Positions 359 to 15,695 of a stretch of DNA of 15,695 nucleotides are shown here, piece after piece. Source of the DNA: Acinetobacter johnsonii CIP 64.6 (GTDB lineage: Bacteria > Pseudomonadota > Gammaproteobacteria > Pseudomonadales > Moraxellaceae); contig NZ_KB849235.1 of the NCBI RefSeq assembly GCF_000368045.1, positions 45,108-60,802 on the forward strand. The letters are read 5' to 3'. The notes beneath the pieces were generated by a model that was given only the letters and a program-made list of their open reading frames with translations, did not search any database and had not been told where the DNA came from. The position numbers were made by a program, and so were the translations under genes. Every line of letters begins with the position of its first letter. Positions within the stretch are counted from its first letter, which is position 1.

Positions 359-466
359 CCAAGCGCATTATATAAGCAGAAAGTATTTACCTAGGGTGTG
401 TATATTTTAAATCGCAGTTACTGATAATAATTTTAATTTTTTATTCATAAAGGTTTGAGGCAAGTT

Positions 467-1117
467 TTGAAAAAATATTATTTAATTTTACCTACATTTG
501 TTTTATTGGCGGTGACACCATTTACTTTTGCAGCGGCAGAAGAGGGTATTAGTTTAAAAAATAAGTGTATTAAAGATTACCCATTGGTAAATGGTGAGAC
601 TGATCACAATTTACTAAGTTTATATGCACAAATTTGCGATAGTAAAAATAAAAAAAATGATGAGCTAAAAAATAAATTATTAGTTCAAGCTGCAAGTCGA
701 TATCAAGAACTAGGGAAAAGTTATAAAGCACTTCAACTGGTTGAAGAGTTAAATACGCGAAATATTAATCATACATCATTAACAGATACTCGGTTTTTAG
801 CTGGCGTTTCGATTGCAAATACGGCGTTAAACCATATGCGTCAAGAAGAAATGCGCTATTTATCTGCAGACTTAACTTATCCGCCTGCTAAAGATTTGTC
901 TAATCTCGTTCGTAACTCTTTGCCTGCGCCAGATACGAGTGATGCAAAGGCCGTGGTGATCAAAGCACCAAAGAAAACCACGCGTAAAATCGCAAGTTCA
1001 ACCAAACAAACCACAAAGAAAACAATGGCTCAGGTGGCAAAACCCAAAAAAGTTGAGAAAGCACAATCAACTGAAGTGGCGAGCAAACCGAATACGAATC
1101 CCTTCAATTCACTTTAA
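467..1117 (+). CDS. asaA: AsaA-like Acinetobacter T6SS-associated protein. It is exported, with an N-terminal signal peptide and a Lys/Thr-rich C-terminal tail
   Basis: The ORF is open from TTG at 455. TTG at 467 is preceded by GAGG (457..460) at 6-nt spacing and yields MKKYYLILPTFVLLAVTPFTFA/AAEE, a textbook Sec signal (KK n-region, hydrophobic core, A-x-A-like site). Its position immediately upstream of tssB matches asaA in Acinetobacter T6SS loci. The C-terminus, KAPKKTTRKIASSTKQTTKKTMAQVAKPKKVEKAQ, is low complexity. Confidence 0.7.
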   Translation: MKKYYLILPTFVLLAVTPFTFAAAEEGISLKNKCIKDYPLVNGETDHNLLSLYAQICDSKNKKNDELKNKLLVQAASRYQELGKSYKALQLVEELNTRNINHTSLTDTRFLAGVSIANTALNHMRQEEMRYLSADLTYPPAKDLSNLVRNSLPAPDTSDAKAVVIKAPKKTTRKIASSTKQTTKKTMAQVAKPKKVEKAQSTEVASKPNTNPFNSL

Positions 1118-1157
1118 AAACTTTCATTTTTGAAATAATAAAAAATAGGATTTTCAT

Positions 1158-1661
1158 ATGGCTAAACGTGAAAGCGTCCAGAAAAAGTTACAGCGTATTC
1201 GACCACCTCGGGTACAACTGACTTATGATGTTGAGGTTGGTGATGCTAAAGAAATTAAGGAATTACCATTTGTTGTTGGTGTTTTAGGTGATTTTTCCGC
1301 GGCATCTGAAATAGAAAAAACCAAGCTCAAAGACAAAAAATTTATTAATGTTGATTTGGAAAACATTGATGAAGTCATGGAGTCTTTAGCACCACGTGCA
1401 GCCTATCAAGTTGAAAATACATTGACTGAAGAAGGTGGACGTATGTCTGTTGATTTGACGTTTAAGTCGATGGAAGATTTTCGTCCTGAAAATGTGGTTC
1501 AGCAAGTGGATCCTTTGAAAAAGTTGGTAGAAGCTCGTGAACGTTTGACTGATTTGCGTAACAAAATTTCGAATAATGAGCGCTTAGAAGATCTACTTGA
1601 TCAAGTTCTGCACAATACAGATCAAGTGCGTAAAATGAGTGTGGAGGCTGAAAATGAATAA
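1158..1661 (+). CDS. tssB: T6SS contractile sheath small subunit TssB (VipA)
   Basis: ATG at 1158 with AGGA (1147..1150) 7 nt upstream. The 167 aa product has an N-terminus, KLQRIRPPRVQLTYDVEVGDAKEIKELPFVVGVLGDFS, typical of the TssB/VipA family. It lies directly upstream of tssC and overlaps it. Confidence 0.93.
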   Translation: MAKRESVQKKLQRIRPPRVQLTYDVEVGDAKEIKELPFVVGVLGDFSAASEIEKTKLKDKKFINVDLENIDEVMESLAPRAAYQVENTLTEEGGRMSVDLTFKSMEDFRPENVVQQVDPLKKLVEARERLTDLRNKISNNERLEDLLDQVLHNTDQVRKMSVEAENE

Positions 1662-3135
1662 TGCCCAATCTGCTGCAGTTGCTCAAGATACCACTGAAGA
1701 ATTTACGCTATTAGATTCAATTGTTGAACGTAGTCGAATTGCTCGAAATGAAGAAGAGCATGATCGTGCGAAAAGTTTAATTGGCGAGCTCGCTAAAGAA
1801 GTGATGGCGGGGACGATTACTGTTTCAGAAAATATGACATTATCGATTGATAAGCGTATTGCTGAAATTGATGCACTCATTTCAACGCAGCTCAGTAAAA
1901 TTATCCATGACGAACAATTTCAAAAAATTGAATCGACATGGCGCGGTTTATATTACTTTTGCCAAGAAACGCCATCTAATCCATTGATTAAGATTCGTAT
2001 GTTGAATACAACGAAGAAAGAATTAATCAAGGATTTTCAAGGCGCAACGGACTTTGATCAAAGTACATTGTTTAAAAAGATCTATGAAGAAGAATATGGG
2101 TCATTTGGTGGTGCGCCATATGCCACATTAATTGGCGATTTTGAGTTTGATCGTACACCTTCAGACATGTATTTGCTGGAACAAATTTCACATGTTGCTG
2201 CAGCTGCACATGCACCCTTTATTTCTGCAGCAGATGCTAACATCCTCGGATTGGAGTCATTTACGGATATTGACCGTCCGCGTGAAGTATCCAAAATTTT
2301 TGAAACCGCTGAATATGTTCAGTGGCGTTCTTTCCGAGAAAGTGATGATGCGCGCTATGTTGCATTAACAATGCCGCGTGTATTGGGTCGTCTGCCTTAT
2401 CACCCTAAGGAAGGTACAGCGACTGAAGGCTTTAATTTTGTGGAAGAAGTCTCAGGGCAAAATCACGATGAATATTTATGGATGAATGCTGCCTATGCTT
2501 TTGGCACGCGTTTGACCAATGCTTTTGATATGCATGGTTGGTGTGCTGCCATTCGTGGGGTTGAAGGTGGTGGTTTAGTAGAAGGATTACCCGTTCATAC
2601 CTTTAAAACCAGTGATGGTGAAGTGGTCTTTAAATGTCCGACTGAAATTGCGATCACCGATCGTCGTGAAAAAGAGCTCAGTGATCTTGGCTTTATTCCT
2701 TTAGTACACTGTAAAAATACAGATTACGCAGCATTTTTTGGTGCGCAATCGACGCAGAAACCTAAAAAGTATAATAGCGATTCTGCCAATGCAAACTCTG
2801 CTTTATCTAGCCAAATTCAGTACATTATGGCCGTTTCACGTATTGCACATTATTTAAAAGCCATGATGCGAGATAAAGTCGGAAGCTTTGCTTCGGCTGG
2901 AAACATTGAAACATTTCTAAATGAGTGGTTGGCTCAATATATTTTGCTTGATGACGGGGCTTCACAAGAGGCGAAAGCGCAATATCCGCTGCGTGAAGCA
3001 TCTGTCAAAGTTGTAGAGAACCCAGCACAACCGGGGCACTACAAATCTGTGGTTTTCTTAAGACCACATTTCCAGTTGGATGAGTTGTCAGTATCACTGC
3101 GACTTGTTACTGAGTTACCTCAGTCCTCAAACTAA
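1654..3135 (+). CDS. tssC: T6SS contractile sheath large subunit TssC (VipB)
   Basis: The ORF is open from GTG at 1639. ATG at 1654 has GGAGG (1643..1647) 6 nt upstream and gives a 493 aa protein (MNNAQSAAVAQ...), the usual TssC length. This start overlaps the tssB stop (TAA 1659..1661). Family-typical segments include YEEEYGSFGGAPYATLIGDFEF and PRVLGRLPY. Confidence 0.93.
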   Translation: MNNAQSAAVAQDTTEEFTLLDSIVERSRIARNEEEHDRAKSLIGELAKEVMAGTITVSENMTLSIDKRIAEIDALISTQLSKIIHDEQFQKIESTWRGLYYFCQETPSNPLIKIRMLNTTKKELIKDFQGATDFDQSTLFKKIYEEEYGSFGGAPYATLIGDFEFDRTPSDMYLLEQISHVAAAAHAPFISAADANILGLESFTDIDRPREVSKIFETAEYVQWRSFRESDDARYVALTMPRVLGRLPYHPKEGTATEGFNFVEEVSGQNHDEYLWMNAAYAFGTRLTNAFDMHGWCAAIRGVEGGGLVEGLPVHTFKTSDGEVVFKCPTEIAITDRREKELSDLGFIPLVHCKNTDYAAFFGAQSTQKPKKYNSDSANANSALSSQIQYIMAVSRIAHYLKAMMRDKVGSFASAGNIETFLNEWLAQYILLDDGASQEAKAQYPLREASVKVVENPAQPGHYKSVVFLRPHFQLDELSVSLRLVTELPQSSN

Positions 3136-3181
3136 TTTGAGTGCCAACACATAATAACTTTAGAATAGGAAAAGATTACAA

Positions 3182-3685
3182 ATGAAAGACATATACGTAC
3201 AGTTCAGAGGTAAATATAAGGTCGATGGCGAGTCGCGCGATACAGAGCACCAAGGTTGGTTAGAGGTGAACTCTTGGTCACACAATATTCGTCAGCCAAA
3301 GTCTGCAACATCATCAAGTGTTGGTGGTCATACGGCAGAACGTGTTGAACACTCAGACATGCTTTTTGTTAAAGATTTGGATGCAACCAGTCCAAAACTT
3401 TGGGAAGCATGTTCAGCCGGTTATACCTTTGATGAAGTACAAATTGATTTTTATCGCGCAAATGGCGATAAGCGCATCAAGTATCTACAAATTAAATTGA
3501 AGCATGTTTTGGTTTCAAGTGTTACACCAACAGTAAGTGAGGAAGGTGTTCCGCTTGAAGGGTTTGGTTTGAAATATGCTGCTGTGGAATGGACGTATAA
3601 CCAGCAAGATATTAATGGCACACAAAAAGGTGCTGTGACCAAGAAATGGTCTTTATCAAACAATACTGCATCATACGCTGCATAA
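3182..3685 (+). CDS. hcp: T6SS inner tube protein Hcp (TssD)
   Basis: ATG at 3182 with AGGA at 3167..3170. The 167 aa product, MKDIYVQFRGKYKVDGESRDTEHQGWLEVNSWSHN...DATSPKLWEACSAGYTF...KYAAVEWTY, has the typical Hcp1-family pattern and length and closely resembles Acinetobacter Hcp as I recall it. Confidence 0.95.
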   Translation: MKDIYVQFRGKYKVDGESRDTEHQGWLEVNSWSHNIRQPKSATSSSVGGHTAERVEHSDMLFVKDLDATSPKLWEACSAGYTFDEVQIDFYRANGDKRIKYLQIKLKHVLVSSVTPTVSEEGVPLEGFGLKYAAVEWTYNQQDINGTQKGAVTKKWSLSNNTASYAA

Positions 3686-3697
3686 AAATAACTGAAA

Positions 3698-3730
3698 AAA
3701 TAAAGGCTAACCAACGTTGGCCTTTATTTA
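3698..3730 (+). terminator. Rho-independent terminator/attenuator immediately downstream of hcp
   Basis: AAATAAAGGC (3698..3707) pairs with GCCTTTATTT (3720..3729) around a CTAACCAACGTTG-type loop, followed by a T-rich run. It lies 13 nt after the hcp stop and 7 nt before the tssE ORF. Confidence 0.6.
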
Positions 3731-3736
3731 TGCGAG

Positions 3737-4228
3737 ATGATTTTAATCAACATGAATCTAGATCAGCTTTATCCCTATGGGTTTAGAAAAACGCTATTTG
3801 ACCGATTACTACCGACCACTGAACAGGACCGATTGGGGATGTCTCTTCAGGAGCTACGTGAATCCGTCGCGACCGACTTAGAAGATTTGTTGAACAGTCG
3901 TATGGCCAATTTTAATGATTCAATTGATGCTTTCCCGTTGGTGAAAAAGTCCATTGTTCAGTTTGGAATCATTGATTTTGTTGGATTATCGACTGCGAAT
4001 CCGACCGATCGCGATAAAATTTGCCAATCGATTGCTGCGTCTATTACAGCGCATGAGCCGAGACTAAAACAAATCAAAGTCGAAATGTTGCTCGATGGGC
4101 AGAATATGGGGGCTTTGTGTTTGAGTATTCAAGCCTATTTAAATATTCATCCTTTATATGAACCCGTCATTTTTGATGCTTTGCTCAAACCGACAACACA
4201 ACAATATGTTATTTCTGCAAGAGCTTAA
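3737..4228 (+). CDS. tssE: T6SS baseplate subunit TssE (gp25-like)
   Basis: The ~160 aa ORF has the segment SLQELRESVATDLEDLLNSR, typical of the TssE/GPW-gp25 family, and is positioned between hcp and tssF. The start is uncertain: ATG at 3737 or in-frame ATG at 3752 (MNLDQLYPYG...), and neither has a strong SD. Confidence 0.85.
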   Translation: MILINMNLDQLYPYGFRKTLFDRLLPTTEQDRLGMSLQELRESVATDLEDLLNSRMANFNDSIDAFPLVKKSIVQFGIIDFVGLSTANPTDRDKICQSIAASITAHEPRLKQIKVEMLLDGQNMGALCLSIQAYLNIHPLYEPVIFDALLKPTTQQYVISARA

Positions 4229-4240
4229 TGGGGCTGATTT

Positions 4241-6049
4241 GTGATTGAAGAATTATTACCGTACTACGAAAAACAATTACAAGAATTTGGGCAGCAGTCC
4301 CGTGAGTTTTCGCAAAAATACCCCAAAATCGCTCAGCGTTTATCCTTAAACCAAGAGCAAGTAGATGATCCGCATATTGAACGCTTAATTCAGTCTTTTT
4401 CTTTAATTGCAGCAAGAATTGATAAGAAACTGGCGGACAGTTACGACATCTTTACCCGGTCTTTGTTTGAGGTGATGTTTCCTCAATACCTTAAACCATT
4501 TCCTGCATGTACTGTGGTCAGTTTTGAAGACTTAAATAAGTGTAAACAATTAACTGAAGCTCATCTTATTCCTAAAAATACTGCAATAAAATCAAGAAGT
4601 TTTAAAGGCGTACAGTGTGAATTTAGCACCACACAAGAACTAAAGTTATTACCCATTGAACTGAGTCATCTCAATTTTAAAACCAATCCTAGTGCGCATA
4701 TGCATTTAAATCAAAATGCAACGCTAAGCTTGGGCTTTAATATTTTTAATCAGACACATCGAACTTTAGAAAAAGAAAACTTGCCTATTTATTTGGATGC
4801 GATATCCAATTTTCCACTACAAGTTTTGGATGCTGTGTTCCAGTCGGGTACAGGATTTTCATTAAAGTTTGGTCATCGCGTCATCGACATCCCAAATCCG
4901 TTTAGTATCATGGGTTTTGCTGAAACTGAAAGTCTGTTGCCCTTGGATCAACATACACATCATGCATACCGGCTGTTGATGGAATATTTCTGTTTTTCTG
5001 AAAAATTTAACTTTCTCAATATGAACTTAGGTTTGTTAAAATATTTAGAAAAAGAGCAAAATCAGTTTGAAATTTTGATTCATCTTAAACTGAATTTAAA
5101 TGATCAGGTCAATATTCGAAATTATTCTGAGTTGAATGTCGCAAACTTTAAATTATATGTGGTACCAGTTATCAATTTATTTAAAAAACAGGCTGAACCT
5201 CAAAAAATTAATCATCAACAACTCGAATATCCTTTAATTACCGATGCTCATCATCCTGAGTTTTATCAAACTTATTCGATTACTAAAATGCAAATGATTC
5301 GTGAAAAGTCGAATAAAGATCAAACTACTTTTGACATTTATCCATTCTTTGCGATGAGTCATTATCAAAAGGATGAGACTCAGTTTTTTTATAGTTTGAA
5401 TTCGGCACAGCTACAAAATAAATATGTTGAAACAGGTTATAGTATTATTTCAAAACATTTATCGCCTGAAACAACCAAATCTGATTTTATCAGTACGCAA
5501 TTATTATGCTCCAATCGTGATTTACCCCATGAGGCATTGAGCCAAGCCAACAATATATTAAATTTGAATGATAGTAGTCTGGCACGGCGAGCTGTGGTTT
5601 TAAAAAGACCGAATAAACCCTATTACTTTGAACAAAATAAAAAAGAGCAATGGCGGATCATTTCGCATTTATCATTAAATACTTTATCTCTCACCAAGGG
5701 CGATGCTTTAAGCCATATTCAGGAATTGCTTGAACTGTATAACCTGCCTCAGCTCAAAGAAAACCACCTTATTATTAATGCGATTCAGTCGGTTAGTTTT
5801 GAATTAAAGCAAAAGATGGTGGATGCAAAACCATTCCCACTCTTTATACGAGGGTTGAAAGTAAATCTAGGGATTGATTCGAAAGTGTTTCGAGGACATA
5901 GCCTGTATATTTTTAGTCAGTTGTTGTCGCATGTCTTTAATCTAAAAGTCCAGATGAACAGTTTTGTCGATGTTGTTATTTCAGATGCTCAATCTCAACA
6001 GGAGTTATACCAATGCGTGCAGAACGTTGGTGGCAAGACACTTCTATAG
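4241..6049 (+). CDS. tssF: T6SS baseplate subunit TssF
   Basis: GTG start at 4241 with GGGG at 4230..4233. The N-terminus, MIEELLPYYEKQLQEFGQQSREFSQKYPKIAQRL, matches the conserved TssF opening (LLxYYxxEL...EFxxxYPKIAxRL). The product is 602 aa and is followed by an overlapping tssG. Confidence 0.92.
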   Translation: MIEELLPYYEKQLQEFGQQSREFSQKYPKIAQRLSLNQEQVDDPHIERLIQSFSLIAARIDKKLADSYDIFTRSLFEVMFPQYLKPFPACTVVSFEDLNKCKQLTEAHLIPKNTAIKSRSFKGVQCEFSTTQELKLLPIELSHLNFKTNPSAHMHLNQNATLSLGFNIFNQTHRTLEKENLPIYLDAISNFPLQVLDAVFQSGTGFSLKFGHRVIDIPNPFSIMGFAETESLLPLDQHTHHAYRLLMEYFCFSEKFNFLNMNLGLLKYLEKEQNQFEILIHLKLNLNDQVNIRNYSELNVANFKLYVVPVINLFKKQAEPQKINHQQLEYPLITDAHHPEFYQTYSITKMQMIREKSNKDQTTFDIYPFFAMSHYQKDETQFFYSLNSAQLQNKYVETGYSIISKHLSPETTKSDFISTQLLCSNRDLPHEALSQANNILNLNDSSLARRAVVLKRPNKPYYFEQNKKEQWRIISHLSLNTLSLTKGDALSHIQELLELYNLPQLKENHLIINAIQSVSFELKQKMVDAKPFPLFIRGLKVNLGIDSKVFRGHSLYIFSQLLSHVFNLKVQMNSFVDVVISDAQSQQELYQCVQNVGGKTLL

Positions 6050-7011
6050 TTGATGTACTGGTTGAACAACCGAACGCTTTTGAATTTATTCAGGCCACGC
6101 GATTACTACGTCATGCGGAGGCTCCCCATGCTCAAAAAGAAGGGGATTGGGCAAAGCAATTTAAGTTTCATAGTTCACTGAATCTTAATTTTCCGAATGC
6201 AGAAATTGAGAGTTTGACCCTTGACGAAGAAAAAATTCACTTAACCAACTTAATGATTGGTTTAACTGGGATTCAGGGCACCTTACCGTATAGCTATACC
6301 AATAAAATTAAACAAAGTGCGCGTATACAACGGAATGAAACACTTCATTTTTTAGGTTTATTTAATCACAAGCTCACTGCGCAATATGTGGATGCATCTT
6401 TAGCTTACCATTTACCGATTCGCTATGAGATTGAGCAAGAAAACCATTACCTCGATATTTTGCATGCACTAAATGGCTATGTGAGTGCTCAACATGAGCA
6501 GCAGGATTTAGATCATTATTTTGCTGAATTCGCTGGATTAATGCAGGGGCAAAATAATACATCACATGCGCTAAAAACCATGCTGAGTTGTGTGTTTAAG
6601 CAACCCTTTAAGATTAAAGAATTTGTTGAAGAGGTCTTTCATTTGTCCCCTGAACAAAGAAGCACACTGGGTGGTAATAATCAATTGGGCATTAATACCT
6701 TTTGTGGAGAAAATATCCGTCAAATAGATGGAAAAATTGAAATAGAAGTTGGCCCCGTCTCATACACCGAGTATTTAAAATTTTTACCCGATCAAGCTGA
6801 GAGTATAAAACTTAAACGATTACTTGCAAGCTGGCTCAGTCCAACGCTTGGGGTGGATTTAAGAATCATCCTGAGGAAAGAGGATATTCAACCGATTCAG
6901 CTGAGTTCAACGATGACCATTGGTTTATCACAAGGCGCTTTTTTAATGCCGATGCCAACTGAACACAATCATGAAACCTGTTATACATTGATGGGGATAG
7001 GGCATGCTTAA
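6013..7011 (+). CDS. tssG: T6SS baseplate subunit TssG
   Basis: ATG at 6013 with GGAG (6001..6004) 8 nt upstream. It overlaps the tssF 3' end by 37 nt. The N-terminal FEFIQATRLLRH motif is typical of TssG. The product is 332 aa. Confidence 0.9.
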   Translation: MRAERWWQDTSIVDVLVEQPNAFEFIQATRLLRHAEAPHAQKEGDWAKQFKFHSSLNLNFPNAEIESLTLDEEKIHLTNLMIGLTGIQGTLPYSYTNKIKQSARIQRNETLHFLGLFNHKLTAQYVDASLAYHLPIRYEIEQENHYLDILHALNGYVSAQHEQQDLDHYFAEFAGLMQGQNNTSHALKTMLSCVFKQPFKIKEFVEEVFHLSPEQRSTLGGNNQLGINTFCGENIRQIDGKIEIEVGPVSYTEYLKFLPDQAESIKLKRLLASWLSPTLGVDLRIILRKEDIQPIQLSSTMTIGLSQGAFLMPMPTEHNHETCYTLMGIGHA

Positions 7012-8431
7012 GCTCTTTATTGGTACTTTGAGCAGCTTGTTGTTGCTTGTTGCAGGAATCGTCATTTTTTATTGGCGAGATATTCAATATGACCCAACTG
7101 GGGCAGACCTGCTCAATTATTTGCTTCTATTTCCACTGATTCTGTGTGTGATTTTATGGTCTCCTGTATTTATTTATCATGCCATTAAAGCCCACCAAAA
7201 GCGCAAAGAGCAACAAAAACAAGCGCAAGTAGAGCAGCATCAGGATGATGACAACCAACAGGCTGAAGCTGTTGAAGTTCAGTGGTTGAACCTGAATATT
7301 TATTCCTCGTCTGCATATAGTGCTTTTGGGGAAAATGACGAGATTCTTGACGAGATTAAAAAATATAAAAGCCCAGAGCTCGATACGCAATTACAAAATG
7401 CCTATGGCTTACCGATGCTGTCTTATCGCATACATGCACTAGATCATGTCATTACAAATCAGGACGATGGTGAAGTCGTTGATCATCCGCGCCATCTGCG
7501 AATTCAAGCTCTGATCGAGCATCAACTAGAGCAACATGCAGAAACATTGTGGCAAGTCTCGCAGCATTTAAAGCAATCGGCTTTATTTTATGACAGTGAA
7601 TTGGCCTATGAATATCGTATGCATCCGGCATGGATTGATCCTACGAGTGAATATGATAGCAATGAACCAGAGGAACAACCTGATGTGCAGCAGGTTGCTA
7701 AATTAAACCGTATCAATATACATATGCTGCTGCCTGAATCGATGTTACATGCTTGGAATGAAGAACAAAGCAGTGGCGTCGTACAGGATTATTTAAGTTC
7801 ATTAGGCGTGATTACGCAGCAAATTCATCTTGAGCACCATTATTTCAGTCAAGAAACAGCCTATAAAGATTGGATGCTGTTATTGGAGCAAATTTCTCAG
7901 CAGTCAGAGGAAATCACGTTCATCCTGAATGTAGATTCTGAAATTGACCAAGAACTGCTTGATGAAAAAACATGGTTAACCGACCATTACTTGCCTGCTG
8001 AATATGCCTCTAGTTGGTGCTTAGCATCATCTTCTTTACCATTACTTGATATCAAACCCTTAAAACAACTCAAGATTGCACTAAACGAGGCCAATCTTGC
8101 CAATCATTTTGAATCCCCACCGATGAAGCAATTAGAACAATTTAAAGATATTCAGCCTTTTGTGCTGATGCTCGATGATATTACAGACATTCAAACCATG
8201 AAAAAACTTAACCAAATTTTCGATCGAAGTGGGATTGAATTGCATCACTTCATTCATACCAAACAAAGCTTTGGACATACGCAGCATTTGGCCAAAGTAT
8301 TTGGATTTATGTTGAGTATGCATTTGCCTGATGAGCTGATGGCGATGATTTATAGCACTGATCAATTGTCTACACATTGTTTTCTACATGCGTGTGAAGA
8401 CAGTAATATCCCTGTAGAACCAACCATTTAA
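7004..8431 (+). CDS. asaB: AsaB-like Acinetobacter T6SS-associated membrane protein. It has two N-terminal TM helices and a large acidic domain of unknown function
   Basis: ATG at 7004 overlaps the tssG stop (ATGCTTAA; TAA at 7009..7011). The hydrophobic segments LFIGTLSSLLLLVAGIVIFYW and LLNYLLLFPLILCVILWSPVFIYHAI are followed by a charged, Gln-rich linker (KRKEQQKQAQVEQHQDDDNQQAEA) and about 380 acidic residues with no motif I recognise. Its position between tssG and tssM matches asaB in Acinetobacter loci. Confidence 0.7.
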   Translation: MLKLFIGTLSSLLLLVAGIVIFYWRDIQYDPTGADLLNYLLLFPLILCVILWSPVFIYHAIKAHQKRKEQQKQAQVEQHQDDDNQQAEAVEVQWLNLNIYSSSAYSAFGENDEILDEIKKYKSPELDTQLQNAYGLPMLSYRIHALDHVITNQDDGEVVDHPRHLRIQALIEHQLEQHAETLWQVSQHLKQSALFYDSELAYEYRMHPAWIDPTSEYDSNEPEEQPDVQQVAKLNRINIHMLLPESMLHAWNEEQSSGVVQDYLSSLGVITQQIHLEHHYFSQETAYKDWMLLLEQISQQSEEITFILNVDSEIDQELLDEKTWLTDHYLPAEYASSWCLASSSLPLLDIKPLKQLKIALNEANLANHFESPPMKQLEQFKDIQPFVLMLDDITDIQTMKKLNQIFDRSGIELHHFIHTKQSFGHTQHLAKVFGFMLSMHLPDELMAMIYSTDQLSTHCFLHACEDSNIPVEPTI

Positions 8432-8455
8432 ATTAAAAAAGAATAAGAGAGTATT

Positions 8456-11400
8456 GTGAATTCTTTATTTTATAACGTCTTAGGTTATGTTTGGCAGTAT
8501 GTGAGCAACCCTAAAGCTATTATGGCTATATCGGGTTTTGTCGCACTAATGGCCATGTATAACGTCATTCCAGCCAAAATCTTTTGGCCTTTAATGATTT
8601 GTTATGTATTCGGGTTGATGCTGTGGGGGATTTATTTACTCATTGTACGTCGTCGACATGCTGCACAAGGTGAAGCTCTTGCCGATGCCATTGCACATGA
8701 CACCAATGCAGAATATGGCAAACAAAAAAACAAAGATGAACTTCATTTGATTCAGCAACAAATGAAAGAATCTATTCAGTTGATTCGAAAATCAAAACTG
8801 GGGGATAAAAAGGGCAATGCTGCACTCTACGAGTTGCCATGGTATATGGTAATTGGTAATCCTGCTGCGGGTAAAAGTTCGGCCATTTATAATTCGGGTT
8901 TAAAGTTTCCTTTTGAAGAAACTCATCAAAAATCAGTTTCTGCTGGACTCAGCGGAACACGTCATTGCGACTGGTTTTTTTCAACAGAAGGCGTGTTATT
9001 AGATACTGCAGGTCGTTATTCTGTTTATGCAGAAGATCATTTTGAGTGGCTAGGTTTTTTAAATATTTTGAAAAAAAACCGCTCAAAAGCACCAATCAAT
9101 GGCTTGATCGTGATTGTCAGTATTGCTGAGTTGGTGAGTAACAGTCCAGAAAAGTCGATCAAATTGGCAAAGAATTTACGTGCCCGGATTCAAGATCTCA
9201 CTGAGCGCCTAGAAGTTTTTTCGCCTGTTTATTTGGTCTTCTCTAAAATGGATCTGATTGCAGGCTTTACTGAGTTTTTTGAATGTTATGAAGTCGGTGA
9301 GTTTGATCAGGTTTGGGGGGCAACACTGCCTTATACAACCGATGGGGCCAATAATGTTGTAGAATTGTTTGAAAAACACTATTCAATTTTATATGACGGT
9401 TTAAAAGGCGTCAGTACGACACATCTCAGCCGCCGACATTCGCAGAATATTTCTCCAAGTGTCATGACATTTCCTTTAGAGTTTAAGAGCTTAAAGCCTG
9501 CGTTAAAGACATTTATTGGCACGCTGTTTGAAGATAACCCTTACCAATTTAAACCTGTTTTTCGTGGCTTTTATTTCACCAGTGCACTGCAAGAAGGCAT
9601 TATTGAAAGTCCAATGACCGAGCAAATTGCTCAAGACTTTTTATTGCAAAAAGGTTTAGACAATGAAAATGGCATTCCAACGCGCTCAGTTTCGCAAAAC
9701 CATGGCTATTTTTTAAAAGGTTTATTTTCTGACATTATTCTGAAAGACAAGAACCTCGTTAAACAGCATATTAACCCTAGCCGAAAGCGTCAGCGTTATA
9801 TTGCCTTTGTTGCCGCTTTATTTGGTGTAGCCATCATTTTAAGTCTATGGGTGTGGTCTTATCGGAATAATCAACAATTGATTGCAGATGTACAAGCCGA
9901 TTTAGACAAAGTTGTTTTACTTGAAAAGCAATCGGGTCAAGAGTTGTCTACACAGCTGAGTGCACTCTTGATTTTACAGGAACGTATGCAGCAGTTGGAC
10001 CAATTTGAAGAAGATCGTCCTTTAAAGCTGGGTTTTGGTCTATATCAGGGAGATGAGCTGCAGGAGAAGCTAAAAACAGAATATTTAAAGGGTGTTGAGC
10101 AAATCGTCTTGATTCCAACACAACAAAATATTGCCCAATATCTACAGCGGGTGAAAAGCAATGAAGAAAAATTGCGCACAAACCATGCAAATGTAGAGCT
10201 GACACCTGTTGCAAAAACACAGCAATATTTAGAGCCTAATGATGCAAATCCACAAGATGCATACAATGCTTTAAAAGCCTATTTAATGATGGGCAATACT
10301 CAATATATGGATGCAAGCCATTTAAGTGATCAAGTCACACGTTTCTGGCGTTCATGGTTGGATAATAATCGTGGGCAAATGCCGCGCGGCGAAATGATCC
10401 AAAAGGCAGAGCAAATTTTGTCATATAGCATGACTTTAGCTGGTGACCCTAAATTTCCAGTACTCAGCTCAGACAGCTTGGTGGTGGATCAAACGCGTCA
10501 AGTTCTTCTGTCTGTTGTTCGTGGAATGCCTGCACGAGACCGTGTTTATAATGAATTAAAAATGCGTGCGGCTGTCCGTTATCCAGCATTAACCATAAAG
10601 CAAATGCTTGGCGATGCCAATCAAAATGCAATTTTAGGGAGTTATGCTTTACCGGGTATGTTTACACATGCGGCATGGTCAGAATATATTGAACAAGCCA
10701 TCGATGAAGTTGCAAAACGTCCTACGGATACCAAAGACTGGGTACTCAACAGCACACAGTCGGATGACTTATCATTTAGTGGTAGCCCAGATCAAATCCG
10801 TAAACAGCTCACAGAACTCTATAAAAAAGAATATATTGCGGAGTGGCGGAAATTTTTAGGTGCGATACATTATGCAAAAGCTAAGGATTACGGACAACAG
10901 GCGAGTTTCGTTCAAGTTTTAGGCGAGCCTGAAAACTCACCCATTCGAAGTGTTTTTGATTGCGTTGCCAAAGAAACCAGTTGGGACAACCCAGTCGTAA
11001 TGGCGGAGCTGGCAGCGCCACAAACAGGTTTTGTGGCTTGGTTTAAACGCAAAGTATTAAGACGAGATGAAACTCAGCTTGATGCCAAAGTCATGAATCA
11101 ATCGCAAGGCCCGATTTCTAAAGAATTCCAGATGTTTTATCAATTGGTGCGTAAGCGTGACGACCAACAAAATAAGTCTTTGCTTGATGAATACATGCAA
11201 TCTTTAGCTCAAGTCCGAAGTAAATTCAATGACTTGAAAAGCTCAGGGGATATTGGACCATCTGCGATGAATTTGGTTAAGTCGACCATTAATGAGCAAA
11301 ATTCTGTCTTTAATACAACACAGAAGCTGGTAGATGAAAAAATGTCAGTTGGCCTGTCTGAGGTTGATCAGAAACTGCTCCAAAAGCTGTTGATGTCGCC

Positions 11401-12280
11401 TCTGACACAATCATTTGAAAGTTTAATTCTCCCTGCACAAGATGAGATGAATAAGCTATGGGTTATGCAAGTCTACCAACCTTTCAATACGAACCTGAGT
11501 AAAAAATATCCTTTTAACTCTTCAGCGACACTGCAAGCAACCAGCAATGAAATTAGCCAAATTCTTGGCGAAAATGGCAGTATTGCGCGTTATGTCAAAG
11601 AGTATCTTGATCCACTGGCTATTCGTCGTGGTTATACCTTGACTTCTAAGACATGGAAAGATTTAGGGATTAGTTTAAATCCACAATTTGTAATGAATTT
11701 TCAAAGCTATGTTGCGCCAAGTAATGGCATGGCAACAGGAGCGTTAAATCAAGCTTCGTCTGCACCTGCTGCTACGGCGCAATCCAATTTTCAATTTTAC
11801 CCAATTGAAAATCCTAAGTTTTTATCCTATACCATTGATATTGATGGACAAAGAATGCTTTATGAAAACGGCATTCAACAATGGGTGAATTTTGTATGGC
11901 CAAATGCCGGAGCAATTCCAGGTGCACGTATTACAGCCATTGATTTAGATGGGAAAACGCATACGATTTTTGAGGCGCCTGGTGAATATGGTATTAATCG
12001 TTTAATTGACGGTGCTGAGCGAACGCAACGTGGCGGAAGCTATGAAATGATTTGGAGAAATCAGCAAAATCCAGAGCTTGCAGTAAAAGTCAATTTCCGT
12101 TTAATCAGCGGAGACGCAAATGGTGGAGTAGGCGGGCAGCGCAGTTACAATGGCATGCAACTGGTCGATCAAATTGTCACCAATAAATCCGTACGTGTGG
12201 TGGCAGCGCAAACCACACCTTCAGCAACAGCTGCAAGTCCTAAAGCTCCAACACCAGGTATACAGGAGCCTCGTTTATGA
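8456..12280 (+). CDS. tssM: T6SS membrane-complex subunit TssM (IcmF-like), with an NTPase P-loop
   Basis: GTG at 8456 with AAGAGAG at 8445..8451. The 1274 aa product has two N-terminal TM helices plus a third (YIAFVAALFGVAIILSLWVWSY, near residue 450). It carries Walker A GNPAAGKS (8855..8878), DTAG (9002..9013) and an SKMD motif. The large C-terminal region is typical of IcmF/TssM. Confidence 0.93.
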   Translation: MNSLFYNVLGYVWQYVSNPKAIMAISGFVALMAMYNVIPAKIFWPLMICYVFGLMLWGIYLLIVRRRHAAQGEALADAIAHDTNAEYGKQKNKDELHLIQQQMKESIQLIRKSKLGDKKGNAALYELPWYMVIGNPAAGKSSAIYNSGLKFPFEETHQKSVSAGLSGTRHCDWFFSTEGVLLDTAGRYSVYAEDHFEWLGFLNILKKNRSKAPINGLIVIVSIAELVSNSPEKSIKLAKNLRARIQDLTERLEVFSPVYLVFSKMDLIAGFTEFFECYEVGEFDQVWGATLPYTTDGANNVVELFEKHYSILYDGLKGVSTTHLSRRHSQNISPSVMTFPLEFKSLKPALKTFIGTLFEDNPYQFKPVFRGFYFTSALQEGIIESPMTEQIAQDFLLQKGLDNENGIPTRSVSQNHGYFLKGLFSDIILKDKNLVKQHINPSRKRQRYIAFVAALFGVAIILSLWVWSYRNNQQLIADVQADLDKVVLLEKQSGQELSTQLSALLILQERMQQLDQFEEDRPLKLGFGLYQGDELQEKLKTEYLKGVEQIVLIPTQQNIAQYLQRVKSNEEKLRTNHANVELTPVAKTQQYLEPNDANPQDAYNALKAYLMMGNTQYMDASHLSDQVTRFWRSWLDNNRGQMPRGEMIQKAEQILSYSMTLAGDPKFPVLSSDSLVVDQTRQVLLSVVRGMPARDRVYNELKMRAAVRYPALTIKQMLGDANQNAILGSYALPGMFTHAAWSEYIEQAIDEVAKRPTDTKDWVLNSTQSDDLSFSGSPDQIRKQLTELYKKEYIAEWRKFLGAIHYAKAKDYGQQASFVQVLGEPENSPIRSVFDCVAKETSWDNPVVMAELAAPQTGFVAWFKRKVLRRDETQLDAKVMNQSQGPISKEFQMFYQLVRKRDDQQNKSLLDEYMQSLAQVRSKFNDLKSSGDIGPSAMNLVKSTINEQNSVFNTTQKLVDEKMSVGLSEVDQKLLQKLLMSPLTQSFESLILPAQDEMNKLWVMQVYQPFNTNLSKKYPFNSSATLQATSNEISQILGENGSIARYVKEYLDPLAIRRGYTLTSKTWKDLGISLNPQFVMNFQSYVAPSNGMATGALNQASSAPAATAQSNFQFYPIENPKFLSYTIDIDGQRMLYENGIQQWVNFVWPNAGAIPGARITAIDLDGKTHTIFEAPGEYGINRLIDGAERTQRGGSYEMIWRNQQNPELAVKVNFRLISGDANGGVGGQRSYNGMQLVDQIVTNKSVRVVAAQTTPSATAASPKAPTPGIQEPRL

Positions 12281-12316
12281 TTTCTCGAAAGTGGCTAGGT
12301 TGTAAGGAGTATTGCG

Positions 12317-13273
12317 ATGGATGAACTGCGTACCTTAGCTTTATATTATGGAAAATGTCCTGCACGTGGTGATTTCTTAAAAACACGCGGCCAGTATGCC
12401 TTAATTCAACTGATTGATCAGTGGATTACTGAAGCATTAGAACATGCCATGCAATCAGAGGGATTTAGTCAAGCATATGAAAAGCTACCTTCATTAGACT
12501 TTTTTATTGCCAATCCACAAGAAAATAATTTTCTTGTGGCAAATTTGATAGCCAGTCACGATAGTTCTGGTCGTCAATTTCCAATGGTATTGAGTCATTT
12601 ATTAGAGATTGAAAACAGTTTTGATAATCTTATTTATGCGCCATATCGCTATAAGCAAACTTTAATCGACTTATTTCAAAAGAATCGTGTGGTACGTTCG
12701 ATACGTGACCCCAATATCGTGCTCGATAAATTATCTAAATTAAATAATGAGATACAGGTTTTTAATCACAGCGAAGTTTCGGCATTTTATGAACACCATA
12801 CGATACATTCATTTGCTCAATTACTAAGAATGAGCAGTTATGAGCTTGCACAAAGCATGATTGGACTCGGGTTATTGTTACAACCCGTTATTCAACATGG
12901 TACTAGTCGCTTAACTAAAGTGTTGATATTACCTATTAATAACTCTAGCTACTGCTATGAAATTGCAGCTTTTTGGGTCAATCTAATCAGTTTTTTTATT
13001 CAAAATCAAAATGCTGAGCTTCTGATAGGGGTTTTACATAGCGAAAAACCGGTACTGCTTTTTGGCTTTCAAGGGGCAGATATTATGACCTTAAGTGAAA
13101 TTTTCACGCAAAAGTTAGATTCAGATCACTGGGTTTCATTGGTCCAAGCCAATTGGATTGATGCATATTTAGAGCAAAATGCCGGTTTGGCAACGCTGGA
13201 GCAAGCTTTGTGTGAGCGGCAATTGAGCTTAATACAAGCTGTGAAACTTTTTAAAAAAACTTTTATAGATTAG
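12317..13273 (+). CDS. tagF: T6SS-associated protein TagF (DUF2094/ImpM family)
   Basis: ATG at 12317 with AAGGAG (12304..12309) 7 nt upstream. The N-terminal [16 protein letters not shown] matches the hallmark TagF motif (GKxPxxGDF). The product is 318 aa and sits directly after tssM, as in many T6SS loci. Confidence 0.85.
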
Positions 13274-13279
13274 TAAAAT

Positions 13280-14044
13280 ATGAAAATAAATCATAGATTT
13301 AAGTCGAATAAATGGCTGCTGACTTTAACGTTGGTTTTGAGCGTGAATGTATGGGCTGAACCGATTATTGTTGAAGGTGTTGTTCCAAATGATGCTAGTA
13401 AGCAAATCATTTTAAACAAGATGTATAGTGTTTATGGCGCTGACCAAGTGATTGATAAAATAAAGGTTAAAGCAGTTAATGCTCCAAATGGTTGGAGTGA
13501 ATCTGTTGCGAATATGGTGGTTCCAGAGTTAAAAAAAGTTCACCAAGGTAAACTTTCTGTACGTGGTACGCAAATGGAACTTAATGGAAAAATATCGAGT
13601 TCAAATGAAGTTCAGCCAACAACAAACTTATTCCAAAGTCTAGTAACGCCACCATATCGATTAAATGCACAGCTTTCTGTCAATCAGGCTGAACAGCAAA
13701 TTATAGATGAAGCGCTTAAAAACAGAATTATAGAATTTGAATCTGGCAGTGCGGTTTTGGCTGCGAATGGGACTCAGATCTTAGATGAAATGGCGGTGGC
13801 TCTAAATAAGGTTGGTGGGAAAAAGGTCAAAATTATCGGACATACAGACAGCTCAGGTGACGCCGCAAAGAATCTTGTTTTAAGTAAAGAGCGTGCTGTA
13901 GCTGTGAAAAATTATTTGATCAATAAAAGTATTGCAGCAGAACGCTTAAGTGTCGAAGGATTGGGCTCAAACAAACCTGTTGCTGATAATGCAACTGCAG
14001 ATGGTCGTAAGAAAAACCGTCGAATTGAATTTGATGTGATCTAA
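13280..14044 (+). CDS. tagN: TagN-like T6SS-associated OmpA-family peptidoglycan-binding protein (exported)
   Basis: ATG at 13280, 6 nt after the tagF stop. The signal-like N-terminus is KSNKWLLTLTLVLSVNVWA/EP. The C-terminal OmpA_C-like domain is IEFESGSAVL...IIGHTDSSGDAAKNLVLSKERAVAVKNYL...GLGSNKPVADNATADGRKKNRRIEF. The N-terminal half has two BON-like segments, judged by pattern only. Confidence 0.85.
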   Translation: MKINHRFKSNKWLLTLTLVLSVNVWAEPIIVEGVVPNDASKQIILNKMYSVYGADQVIDKIKVKAVNAPNGWSESVANMVVPELKKVHQGKLSVRGTQMELNGKISSSNEVQPTTNLFQSLVTPPYRLNAQLSVNQAEQQIIDEALKNRIIEFESGSAVLAANGTQILDEMAVALNKVGGKKVKIIGHTDSSGDAAKNLVLSKERAVAVKNYLINKSIAAERLSVEGLGSNKPVADNATADGRKKNRRIEFDVI

Positions 14045-14094
14045 GTTATTTATAAAAAGCTACATCATCAAGTGTAGCTTTTTATAAATAACTT
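14043..14094. terminator. Perfect 22-bp-arm palindrome; bidirectional rho-independent terminator ending the T6SS operon
   Basis: AAGTTATTTATAAAAAGCTACA (14043..14064), an 8-nt loop TCATCAAG, then TGTAGCTTTTTATAAATAACTT (14073..14094). All 22 positions were checked as complementary. The core AAAAAGCTACA/TGTAGCTTTTT gives a U-run on either strand. It overlaps the tagN stop codon (14042..14044). Confidence 0.75.
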
Positions 14095-14096
14095 AT
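14091..14096. repeat. Left copy of the putative 6-bp target-site duplication (ACTTAT)
   Basis: ACTTAT at 14091..14096 is identical to ACTTAT at 15578..15583. The two copies bracket the IS inverted repeats. Confidence 0.55.
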
Positions 14097-14097
14097 T

Positions 14098-14120
14098 GTT
14101 ATTCCAAAGTAGAAATGTCC
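14098..14120. repeat. IS terminal inverted repeat at the transposase 3' end
   Basis: GTTATTCCAAAGTAGAAATGTCC. A second, subterminal copy CCAAATAGAAATGTCC lies at 14131..14146. Confidence 0.7.
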
Positions 14121-14145
14121 TACCTTAAAACCAAATAGAAATGTC

Positions 14146-15519
14146 CTATATGGACATTTCCAAGTCAAGCACAGGATTTAGATTTCGTTGTTCAATCGCT
14201 GTTTTCTGTGCACGTCTGCTTGGCATCTTTTGAGAACGATTACGTTTGTTTTGCTGTTCCAGTTCTTCATGCTGTTGTTGGATATGATTCAGAACAGCAC
14301 TCAACCGTTTATTCTCAACAATCTCTCGCTGATTCAGCTGACTTAATTTATCGAAGAGGCTGTAATTGATCTTTCGGCTATTATGCATGATGGCTACAGT
14401 ACCATCCGGGTATTCCAGGAACTCAAGATACTTACCGATCAACCTCTGATTTTCTTCGGTGTTTTCCAAGAGATATACGCATTTATCATAAGTAATCGTC
14501 AGGCTATTCGTGACTCTGCGGGGTTCACGCCAGGTAAAAATATCATCTAATTGCTCGGCTGTTTCAGTGACAGAGCGGTGTAAGTTCTTAGGATTAAAGG
14601 CCATCTTTGCAAACTTGAGATTGAACTGCTCAATAAAGCAGGGCAACCACTTATTCGCATCTGCAATCGAACTGATACCTTCCAGACGCATCTCCTTAAT
14701 CAGACGATCCTGAAGTGTCCTGTTGGCCCGTTCCACACGTCCTTTGGCCTGCGGTGAATTGGCGAAGATGATATCGATATTCAGGGTGCTGAGTACACGT
14801 CCAAACTGGGTAATCTTGGTGTCTTTCTTGCTGCTTTGATTCACTCTAAAGACTGAATGTTTGTCGCTGTAAAACGCTAAAGGCTTACCGTGCTGTTCGA
14901 CATATAAACGTGTTGAAATCATATAGTCAAAAGTTGATTCTGACTCACAGAAGCGTAAATGCTGTAATTTGCCTGTGGCATCATCAATGAACACCAGTAG
15001 GCAGCATTTAGCAGCGCGTCCTTCAAACCAGTCATGGTGTGAGCCATCAATTTGGATCAGCTCACCAAAGCAATCCCGGTTGTAACGAGGCTGATACGGG
15101 CGCTTCAGGCGCTTGGATCGAGGAATCCATAAGTCAGCTGCAATCATCCAGGAACGCAGGGTTTCTACTGAAAGATCGAATCCATGCACGGTGGTGAGCT
15201 TTTCATGCGCTAAAGTGGGTCCGAAACCATGGAGTTGGTCAGAAATAATATTGAGGCATTTGAGTCTGAGTTCTTCAGGAAGTTTGGAATTGCTGATTTG
15301 GCCACGACCGGCATGGGCTAATGCAACTGGACCTTGGGCTTTGTATTTCTGCAGTAAGCGTCTGATCTGACGTTCTGAAATATGAAGTAGCTGAGCAGCC
15401 TGGGATTGAGTTATGCGTTGATCGCAGATTTCCTGCAAGACCGACAATCGTTTAAGTTCTTTATCCGACATAGACACCAACATATCAAACCGTCCGCTAA
15501 GGAAATCGCAAAAGTGCAT
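14146..15519 (-). CDS. DDE transposase, IS1202/ISNCY-family-like (N-terminal HTH plus rve-type integrase core)
   Basis: The maximal ORF is 457 aa. The likely true start is ATG at 15471 (MSDKELKRLSVLQEI..., the opening I recall for IS1202-group transposases) or at 15483. The HTH is ITQSQAAQLLHISERQIRRLL. Candidate catalytic residues lie in ELIQIDGSHHDW, AFYSDKHSVF and AKGRVERANRTLQDRL (a D,D,E arrangement). Confidence 0.88.
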   Translation of the reverse strand: MHFCDFLSGRFDMLVSMSDKELKRLSVLQEICDQRITQSQAAQLLHISERQIRRLLQKYKAQGPVALAHAGRGQISNSKLPEELRLKCLNIISDQLHGFGPTLAHEKLTTVHGFDLSVETLRSWMIAADLWIPRSKRLKRPYQPRYNRDCFGELIQIDGSHHDWFEGRAAKCCLLVFIDDATGKLQHLRFCESESTFDYMISTRLYVEQHGKPLAFYSDKHSVFRVNQSSKKDTKITQFGRVLSTLNIDIIFANSPQAKGRVERANRTLQDRLIKEMRLEGISSIADANKWLPCFIEQFNLKFAKMAFNPKNLHRSVTETAEQLDDIFTWREPRRVTNSLTITYDKCVYLLENTEENQRLIGKYLEFLEYPDGTVAIMHNSRKINYSLFDKLSQLNQREIVENKRLSAVLNHIQQQHEELEQQNKRNRSQKMPSRRAQKTAIEQRNLNPVLDLEMSI

Positions 15520-15554
15520 ATTCTAAAAGCGGACATTTTTACTTTGGAGAAACC

Positions 15555-15577
15555 GGACATTTCTATTTTGGAGTTAC
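15555..15577. repeat. IS terminal inverted repeat at the transposase 5' end
   Basis: GGACATTTCTATTTTGGAGTTAC. A subterminal copy GGACATTTTTACTTTGG lies at 15531..15547. Confidence 0.7.
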
Positions 15578-15583
15578 ACTTAT
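15578..15583. repeat. Right copy of the putative 6-bp target-site duplication (ACTTAT)
   Basis: It is identical to 14091..14096 and lies exactly between the IS end and the XerC arm of the dif-type site. Confidence 0.55.
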
Positions 15584-15611
15584 ATTGCGTATAATGTATA
15601 TTATGTTAAAT
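15584..15611 (+). other. dif: XerC/XerD recombination site (dif-type, 28 bp)
   Basis: ATTGCGTATAA-TGTATA-TTATGTTAAAT compared with E. coli dif GGTGCGCATAA-TGTATA-TTATGTTAAAT. The XerC arm matches 8/11, and the 6-bp spacer and 11-bp XerD arm are identical (25/28). The XerC arm is also 10/11 to the ATTTCGTATAA arm common in Acinetobacter pdif sites. Confidence 0.8.
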
Positions 15612-15663
15612 AGCATATCTAAGACTGTAGCCTACGCAACCTCAGTTGGTGCTACAGCTCGAC

Positions 15664-15695
15664 ATTGTGAATCTCAGTAAAATTATATTCACAAT
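15664..15695. repeat. 9-bp inverted repeat ATTGTGAAT-N14-ATTCACAAT at the window edge (function unknown)
   Basis: ATTGTGAAT (15664..15672) is the exact reverse complement of ATTCACAAT (15687..15695). The window ends here, so the context is missing. Confidence 0.3.

Follow-up and report, generated by a model that had tools for sequence, protein, structure and literature searches.

The Xer site after tagN in Acinetobacter johnsonii is very probably the chromosomal dif, with a dif-targeting insertion sequence and a filamentous prophage inserted around it

In Acinetobacter johnsonii CIP 64.6, the last gene of a type VI secretion system (T6SS) operon is followed, after an insertion sequence (IS), by a 28-bp Xer recombination site, which raises the question of why a secretion cluster should stop at such a place. 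The window analyzed here is a stretch of 15,695 nucleotides (NCBI RefSeq assembly GCF_000368045.1, contig NZ_KB849235.1, positions 45,108 to 60,802 of the forward strand). An earlier note on this DNA had offered three explanations: the T6SS lies beside the chromosomal dif at the replication terminus, the site is an accessory Xer site such as a pdif-like module boundary, implying Xer-mediated gain, loss or rearrangement at the T6SS edge, or the replicon is a plasmid. Our analysis indicates that the 28-mer is very probably the main chromosomal dif of A. johnsonii, located directly after tagN, and that an IS and a filamentous prophage have inserted around it.

The 28-mer ATTGCGTATAATGTATATTATGTTAAAT occupies positions 15584-15611 on the forward strand, and consists of the XerC arm ATTGCGTATAA (15584-15594), the central region TGTATA (15595-15600) and the XerD arm TTATGTTAAAT (15601-15611). 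It is the sole match in the window at up to three mismatches, with no match in 200 shuffles, and a relaxed Xer pattern revealed no second Xer site in the window. Direct comparison with the dif of E. coli K12, GGTGCGCATAATGTATATTATGTTAAAT (Carnoy & Roten 2009), gave 25 identical positions out of 28, the mismatches lying at positions 1, 2 and 7, all in the outer XerC arm, and the central hexamer and XerD arm remaining unchanged, exactly as had been read from the window beforehand. A published table gives the exact 28-mer, ATTGCGTATAA tgtata TTATGTTAAAT, for the terminus dif of Acinetobacter sp. CP028561; its entry for A. haemolyticus begins with ATTGCGCATAA (PMC10132070, Table 5).

A contig scan with the query ATTGCGYATAATGTATATTATGTTAAAT returned at least 120 loci, mostly from non-Acinetobacter Gammaproteobacteria, two of the matches listed being Acinetobacter loci. 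Among the matches listed, the 28-mer class occurs as one copy per contig in more than 100 gammaproteobacterial genomes, and the scan placed it at 50% and 48% of two complete chromosomes. As judged from this distribution, the 28-mer is a generic gammaproteobacterial dif. An exact 28-mer of the gammaproteobacterial type also occurs at positions 1768-1795 of a contig (L022) binned as “Candidatus Bathyarchaeota archaeon”; this contig is probably bacterial and mis-binned. Chromosome dimers are resolved at dif by XerC and XerD once FtsK activates them at the septum, and the window site would be expected to serve the same reaction in A. johnsonii. In A. baumannii, dif is bound and recombined by XerC/XerD under the control of FtsK (PMC11705084).

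The nature of the replicon follows from its close relatives. The window is base-for-base identical to L001 and L002 over the stretch compared, and the contigs identical to it, of 3,606,805 and 3,598,417 bp, encode the exact TagN protein; CP065666.1 has been called an A. johnsonii chromosome (PMC12195534). Because the window-identical contigs reach 3.6 Mb, the proposal of a plasmid or megaplasmid that carries the T6SS and uses the site for multimer resolution is refuted, and we assign it a negligible probability. The sole observation in its favor is that the IS is common on plasmids, but a megablast search of window positions 12300-15695 against 72,556 plasmids gave matches limited to this IS and the adjoining Xer site, and none of these plasmid records covered at least 80% of the segment.

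Provided that a record starts near oriC, which is variable since one A. haemolyticus record puts dif at 75%, the site lies at mid-chromosome, namely at 1.710 of 3.598 Mb (47.5%) in CP065666.1 and at 1.585 of 3.186 Mb (49.8%) in A. johnsonii CP079792.1 (L134), with the equivalent tagN-adjacent dif of A. indicus CP070997.1 at 1.639 of 3.213 Mb (51%). The dif1 of A. johnsonii XBB1 was mapped to 1,728,476 of 3,509,795 bp, corresponding to 49.2% (Mindlin et al. 2019). At the A. johnsonii-like, A. indicus and A. haemolyticus loci, the local GC skew ranges from +0.05 to +0.11 on the left of dif and from -0.04 to +0.02 on the right, where it is blurred by a low-GC island. The KOPS motif GGGNAGGG was not found in any dif flank examined; given the low-GC right flank and the missing motifs, the local skew is supportive but short of decisive. 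The canonical centre, the chromosomal mid-record position and the recurrence of the site at an unchanged location in several A. johnsonii strains and in A. indicus make the first of the three explanations, a T6SS beside the terminus dif, the best supported.

The T6SS cluster itself gives no hint of an interruption. Its forward block (455-14044, forward strand) comprises hyp1/asaA, tssB, tssC, hcp, tssE, tssF, tssG, hyp2/asaB, tssM, tagF and tagN, and Pfam search with the identical genes in L001, L002 and L129 identified VipA, VipB, T6SS_HCP, GPW_gp25, TssF, TssG, IcmF, TagF_N and OmpA. On the opposite strand, upstream of the first gene of the window, lies the block tssH-tssA-tssK-tssL-hyp3-tagX, in which hyp3 is a 199-aa gene. 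The published T6SS-1Bb type, which lists both A. johnsonii and A. indicus, has a main cluster that ends at tagN without PAAR (Repizo et al. 2019, PMC6838775), and the present locus shows the same features, with tssH-tagX divergent from hyp1-tagN and no PAAR after tagN. The upstream block and the published layout thus demonstrate that the cluster is complete and ends where expected, so that the earlier impression of a cluster cut short at the Xer site no longer holds. Nor did we see any trace of T6SS genes having been gained, lost or rearranged through Xer recombination.

The adjacency of tagN and dif is common to A. johnsonii and A. indicus. It is absent in A. haemolyticus, NIPH 2100 and BSP-28, where tagN is followed by PAAR and an ABC transporter, by PAAR, and by an amidase gene, respectively. 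The tagN locus of A. haemolyticus (L131 and L132, 5930-11061) looks decayed: tssM encodes 1023 residues compared to about 1270, and is preceded by greA or a phage integrase gene rather than tssG/asaB. The tssM of the window is itself called with two lengths in public records, 1274 or 1252 aa. Short-read assemblies (L003, AMJE01000039.1, and L137) end within the IS or just past tagN, and the contig carrying P0031 ends at tagN; assemblies often break at the end of the T6SS operon because IS copies and tandem prophages come after tagN.

The joint between the operon and dif could be resolved to the base. The last gene, tagN (13280-14044, forward strand), encodes an OmpA-type peptidoglycan-binding T6SS accessory protein (Pfam OmpA, E 2.8e-23), and its end lies within a terminator palindrome at 14042-14095 on the same strand. 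The palindrome has 23-nt arms (14042-14064 and 14073-14095) separated by an 8-nt loop, with an inner stem AGCTACA/TGTAGCT followed by TTTTT, and was also found by a terminator scan. Upon subtraction of the IS and one copy of CTTAT, dif begins 1 bp past the palindrome, instead of the 2 bp given previously, and the same joint is found in IS-free strains. In the IS-free A. johnsonii loci L134, L135 and L144, the joint reads ...gtgtagctttttataaataacttat immediately followed by ATTACGTATAATGTATATTATGTTAAAT, and CTTAT is present as a single copy. The second complete A. johnsonii chromosome, CP079792.1, lacks the IS, and its ...ataaCTTAT is followed by ATTACGTATAATGTATATTATGTTAAAT and then by the phage, with at least two full tandem prophages after dif.

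A scan of metagenome contigs with an integrase-like protein encoded in the right flank yielded A. johnsonii-like contigs of several layouts. Four of them (L139, L144, L145 and L146) have the tagN terminator, a canonical dif, and then the same right flank with the integrase-like gene, free of both IS and phage; L144 and L146 carry the exact 28-mer of the window. Another contig (L148) has the IS end and dif with the phage absent, and L141 has a joint of the attR type. In A. haemolyticus, dif is followed by a homologous right flank, and its left flank is aroC-GGDEF-tenA-flavodoxin-AraC, which is also the left flank of dif in A. modestus. A resident dif is thus found at the orthologous position in relatives free of mobile elements, and the bare metagenome contigs, taken on their sequence, represent the ancestral layout of tagN terminator, one base, dif and integrase-like gene.

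The IS between tagN and the 28-mer is real, as had been noticed earlier; what had been missed is that it belongs to a family known to target dif (PMC10132070). This ISAjo2-type element of the IS1202 family spans 1482 bp (14097-15578, reverse strand), ends in TGT...ACA, and has 24-nt imperfect inverted repeats, of which the inner part is repeated internally at each end. It is flanked by the target-site duplication CTTAT, with a left copy at 14092-14096 and a right copy at 15579-15583, the latter making up the whole 5-bp interval that separates the IS from the XerC arm. The transposase ORF (14146-15519, reverse strand; 457 aa as the longest ORF) matches Pfam HTH_28, HTH_23 and HTH_29, and weakly rve_3; its start differs in public records, which give 441 or 445 aa.

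According to the published description, ISAjo2-type elements are 1481-1482 bp long, with 24-26-bp terminal inverted repeats (TIRs) ending in TGT/ACA, 5-bp duplications and transposases of 441-457 aa, and are always spaced by 5 bp from an XerC arm, be it that of a pdif site or of a chromosomal dif (Harmer, Pong & Hall 2023, PMC10132070). The IS in the window agrees with each of these features, including the 5-bp spacing and the fixed orientation, so its pairing with dif follows a known pattern. With elements annotated as “ISNCY family transposase” in 331 Acinetobacter plasmids it shares 93-97% identity (best plasmid match 97%), and in the plasmid copies the adjoining Xer site lies at the same IS end as in the window.

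These plasmid relatives bear on the second explanation, in which the 28-mer either is an accessory pdif-type site or bounds a dif module or plasmid fragment integrated beside the T6SS, and would mark Xer-mediated T6SS gain or rearrangement. It is true that relatives of the IS1202 family mostly lie beside plasmid pdif sites, that Acinetobacter chromosomes often bear additional dif-like sites (PMC6449649), and that an inverted Xer-like site is found ~90 nt downstream. However, the centre TGTATA is of the main-dif type, and other centres are found in both pdif sites and the additional chromosomal ones (PMC6449649). Moreover, the site keeps its location across A. johnsonii strains, metagenome contigs and A. 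indicus, bare sites included; its flanks contain no plasmid genes, and the T6SS is complete in its published 1Bb layout. The only inverted partner, at a distance of 84 nt, is an arm of a phage attP hairpin and encloses no cargo, so that the inverse pair of pdif sites around a cargo that delimits a pdif module is not present. We therefore consider an accessory site highly unlikely; what stands of the second explanation is that the site is indeed a mobile-element junction, the left junction of a dif-integrated prophage array, with neither a pdif module boundary nor any sign of T6SS rearrangement. Instead of signaling an unusual replicon or a truncated or rearranged T6SS, the 28-mer is very probably the ordinary dif of the species, accompanied by an IS that obeys its published insertion rule.

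On the right side of this chromosomal dif, the window holds the first 84 nt of a dif-integrated element (15612-15695, reverse strand), which form a structured attP loop and recur after the second of three Xer sites in L002; the inverted second Xer-like site lies 7 nt past the window end. The three sites of L002 share one orientation. Site 1 (12305-12332), ATTGCGTATAA TGTATA TTATGTTAAAT, and site 2 (13376-13404), ATGTCGCATAA CGTAATT TTATGTTAAAT, are each followed by phage sequence, and site 3 (19972-20000), the same as site 2, by unrelated sequence and the integrase-like gene. The array thus spans L002 12333-20000, and the crippled hybrid site with its 7-bp central region lies 7.7 kb to the right of the window dif.

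Sites 2 and 3 enclose a 6596-bp inovirus whose genes, for Rep_trans, a 97-aa protein, Phage_Coat_B, a 506-aa protein, DUF2523 and Zot, lie without exception on the minus strand; the unit contains no integrase gene. Sites 1 and 2 enclose a 1072-bp mini-element made up of 374 bp from the start of the phage and 707 bp from its end, the two parts meeting at a 9-bp repeat; in other words, it is the phage minus 5.5 kb, and retains the attP hairpin along with three short ORFs (68, 72 and 64 aa). Tandem mini-elements of other sizes were also seen elsewhere, of 1.27 kb in A. indicus (L133, 2-3 copies) and A. modestus (L092), and of 1.7 kb in an IMG/VR sequence (L157). The three mini-element ORFs of 64-72 aa, together with the 97- and 57-aa ORFs, fall into PHROG families of unknown function, and two other small ORFs of the array have no PHROG match. 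A distant search of a phage collection retrieved no close relative of the inovirus, the best hit being Acinetobacter phage M02 at 73% over part of zot.

The prophage family is widespread at dif in Acinetobacter. Tandem filamentous prophages of A. baumannii were proposed to “probably use host integration machinery” (PMC11209303); we found no published att sites or polarity for such Acinetobacter prophages, in a literature coverage that is incomplete, so an earlier description is possible. In L143 (2207-9867), a canonical dif is preceded on its left, that is, its XerC side, by two copies of a different inovirus (Zot 33% identical), with variant sites such as ATTTCGCATAATGCAGATTGATGTTAAAT and a polarity opposite to that of the 6596-bp family.

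Beyond these elements, a low-GC (31-34%) island starts about 130 bp to the right of dif (L144 9989-15705; L002 from 20134 onwards; L125 from 10001 onwards). It contains two consecutive tyrosine-recombinase genes (449 and 527 aa), followed by genes of 791 and 152 aa that have no Pfam match. The first, integrase-like gene and a 25-bp spacer, TGAGTACATGATAC.TTAAGTTCAT, recur beside dif in A. johnsonii-like contigs and A. haemolyticus, where the gene is disrupted by IS66, and also in several metagenome contigs with other left flanks. This island may be a dif-associated mobile island.

The attP of the inovirus family is paired and structured. An inverted, complete Xer-like site, which reads TTTCGGCATAA CGTATA TTATGTTCATT on the other strand, follows L002 sites 1 and 2 at ~90 nt, and in 27 of 31 copies the distance to the partner is 93-96 nt. 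Folding of the 163-nt attP region gives a forked hairpin (-37 kcal/mol, z = -7.4), and 25 of the 43 pairs of the consensus hairpin show compensatory changes across 20 distinct elements. The covarying pairs include two central-region pairs beside the XerC arm (CGTA/CGTA, CTT-A/CTTA and CGAA/CGAA). In the 6-nt arm, the XerD-proximal bases are ATA in all variants, as in dif.

Superposition of the junctions shows which part of the site was exchanged. If the bare host site, ATTGCGTATAA-TGTATA-TTATGTTAAAT, is written C0-S0-D0 and the phage attP between tandem copies, ATGTCGCATAA-CGTAATT-TTATGTTAAAT, is written Cp-Sp-Dp, then attL is C0-S0-D and attR is Cp-Sp-D, which places the crossover within the XerD arm common to both, or at its border. 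In all arrays examined, the host TGTATA is kept at attL and the phage centre of 7-8 nt is found at attR. The same polarity, with a canonical dif on the left and a site with the 7-8-nt centre on the right, is repeated in a second A. johnsonii strain, A. indicus (where the attP centre is 8 nt), A. modestus and five IMG/VR arrays; among the latter, L157 and L176 end in the A. baumannii dif flank. XerC-mediated integration of the CTXphi/VGJphi type, which was considered as a candidate, predicts C0-Sp and Cp-S0 junctions (Das 2014); these were not observed.

The junctions also decide whether the 28-mer itself is essentially phage-derived. Its neighborhood has the attP architecture of CTXphi, comprising inverted sites, a hairpin of about 160 nt, tandem copies and a satellite-like mini-element, which might suggest a phage origin. 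Nevertheless, it is the right-end site, ATGTCGCATAA CGTAATT TTATGTTAAAT, that has the phage XerC arm and the 7-bp centre, identical to the internal attP, whereas on the left both the XerC arm and the 6-bp centre are those of the host, as in phage-free contigs. The prophage orientation would also be opposite to that expected from XerC cleavage of a coding-strand hairpin. A phage-derived 28-mer is thus refuted at the level of junction sequences, and we regard it as most improbable.

Based on these results, we propose how the chromosomal dif next to tagN acquired its neighbors. An ISAjo2-type element of the IS1202 family would have transposed to 5 bp outside the XerC arm, and an integrase-less filamentous phage, together with its 1.07-kb internally deleted copy, would have integrated by Xer recombination on the XerD side. 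The window site would accordingly consist of the host XerC arm, the host centre and an XerD arm shared with the phage, and would still be a perfect dif. That two mobile elements came to lie around it would be due to dif being a preferred landing pad.

For the phage, the two inverted Xer-like attP sites are predicted to pair in single-stranded DNA to form the forked hairpin, the XerD-cleaved (bottom) strand would be exchanged, as the junctions require, and integration would presumably be completed by replication. The hairpin strand opposite the exchanged one has the dif-like XerD-proximal bases (..ATA) in all variants, and the XerC-proximal bases covary between the arms. The packaged strand of inoviruses is the coding strand as a standard; on this assumption, cleavage of the XerD-side (bottom) strand alone could give both the observed orientation and the junctions. 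Identical products would, however, be expected from a double-stranded reaction begun by XerD, and identical junctions from a full XerD-then-XerC reaction in which replication resolves a heteroduplex centre. Exchange of the XerD strand would leave the host an intact dif on the XerC side, the array therefore extending on the XerD side.

It is conceivable, at somewhat less than even chances, that this prophage family is a fourth kind of Xer-exploiting element, combining a CTXphi-style hairpin attP with XerD-strand exchange; its integration polarity, as read from the junctions, may be a new variant of Xer exploitation. By contrast, the dif site, its mid-chromosome position in A. johnsonii, the dif-hunting IS and the T6SS-1Bb layout are all already known. 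For A. johnsonii and A. indicus, the present findings place the end of the T6SS operon within 60 bp of the busiest Xer integration hotspot of the genome, and indicate that strain differences downstream of tagN reflect IS and phage traffic, not T6SS variation. Natural junctions are available from the prophage arrays of several species, and they suggest a hairpin-attP inovirus on the XerD side of dif. If true, XerD-side hairpin integration would widen Xer hijacking beyond the three Vibrio paradigms; the 28-mer itself is ordinary, and what adjoins it is a plausible new variant of Xer exploitation.

Compared to other chromosomal dif (dif1) sites of Gammaproteobacteria, the window site has the same 28-bp organization of 11 + 6 + 11, and shares the TGTATA centre and the XerD arm TTATGTTAAAT with E. 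coli, A. baylyi ADP1 and A. baumannii. No functional difference from dif1 is expected, the outer XerC-arm bases varying by strain (ATTG, ATTA, AGTT or ATTT); tagN as the immediate neighbor is lineage-specific. The T6SS has the same 1Bb layout as described by Repizo et al. 2019, whereas the direct succession of tagN and dif in A. johnsonii and A. indicus is unmentioned there (PMC6838775). Similarly, the IS resembles the “dif site hunters” (Harmer, Pong & Hall 2023) in length, TIRs, 5-bp duplication and XerC-arm spacing, and differs from the published cases in being a new instance, in A. johnsonii, beside a T6SS operon.

The prophage array shares with the CTXphi-type IMEX (CTXphi, RS1, YpfPhi and CUS-1) an integrase-less inovirus at dif, tandem arrays and a small satellite-like derivative, in addition to a pair of inverted Xer-like sites, spaced by ~90 nt and folding in ssDNA, of which one has an over-long centre. 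However, CTXphi integrates through XerC exchange of the top strand, with a functional dif restored at the opposite end, whereas the Acinetobacter array lies on the XerD side; the CTXphi attL carries the phage centre, but the Acinetobacter attL holds the host XerC arm and host centre, at odds with XerC-side exchange. Similar to the XerD-first elements TLCphi and the gonococcal genetic island, the junctions need exchange of the XerD-cleaved strand. Despite this similarity, the attP of TLCphi is double-stranded, its XerD arm being degenerate and its XerC arm and centre resembling dif, compared to the perfect XerD arm TTATGTTAAAT, deviant XerC arm and centre, and hairpin of the Acinetobacter phage. 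TLCphi also encodes the XerD activator XafT (DUF3653), whereas a Pfam scan of seven small array ORFs, which covered neither Zot, Rep_trans nor the 506-aa gene, found no HTH, XafT or DUF3653 match; the phage may nevertheless encode an activator unrelated to XafT. Altogether, the intact dif at the XerC-side end of the Acinetobacter array is the mirror image of the V. cholerae arrays of CTXphi and TLCphi.
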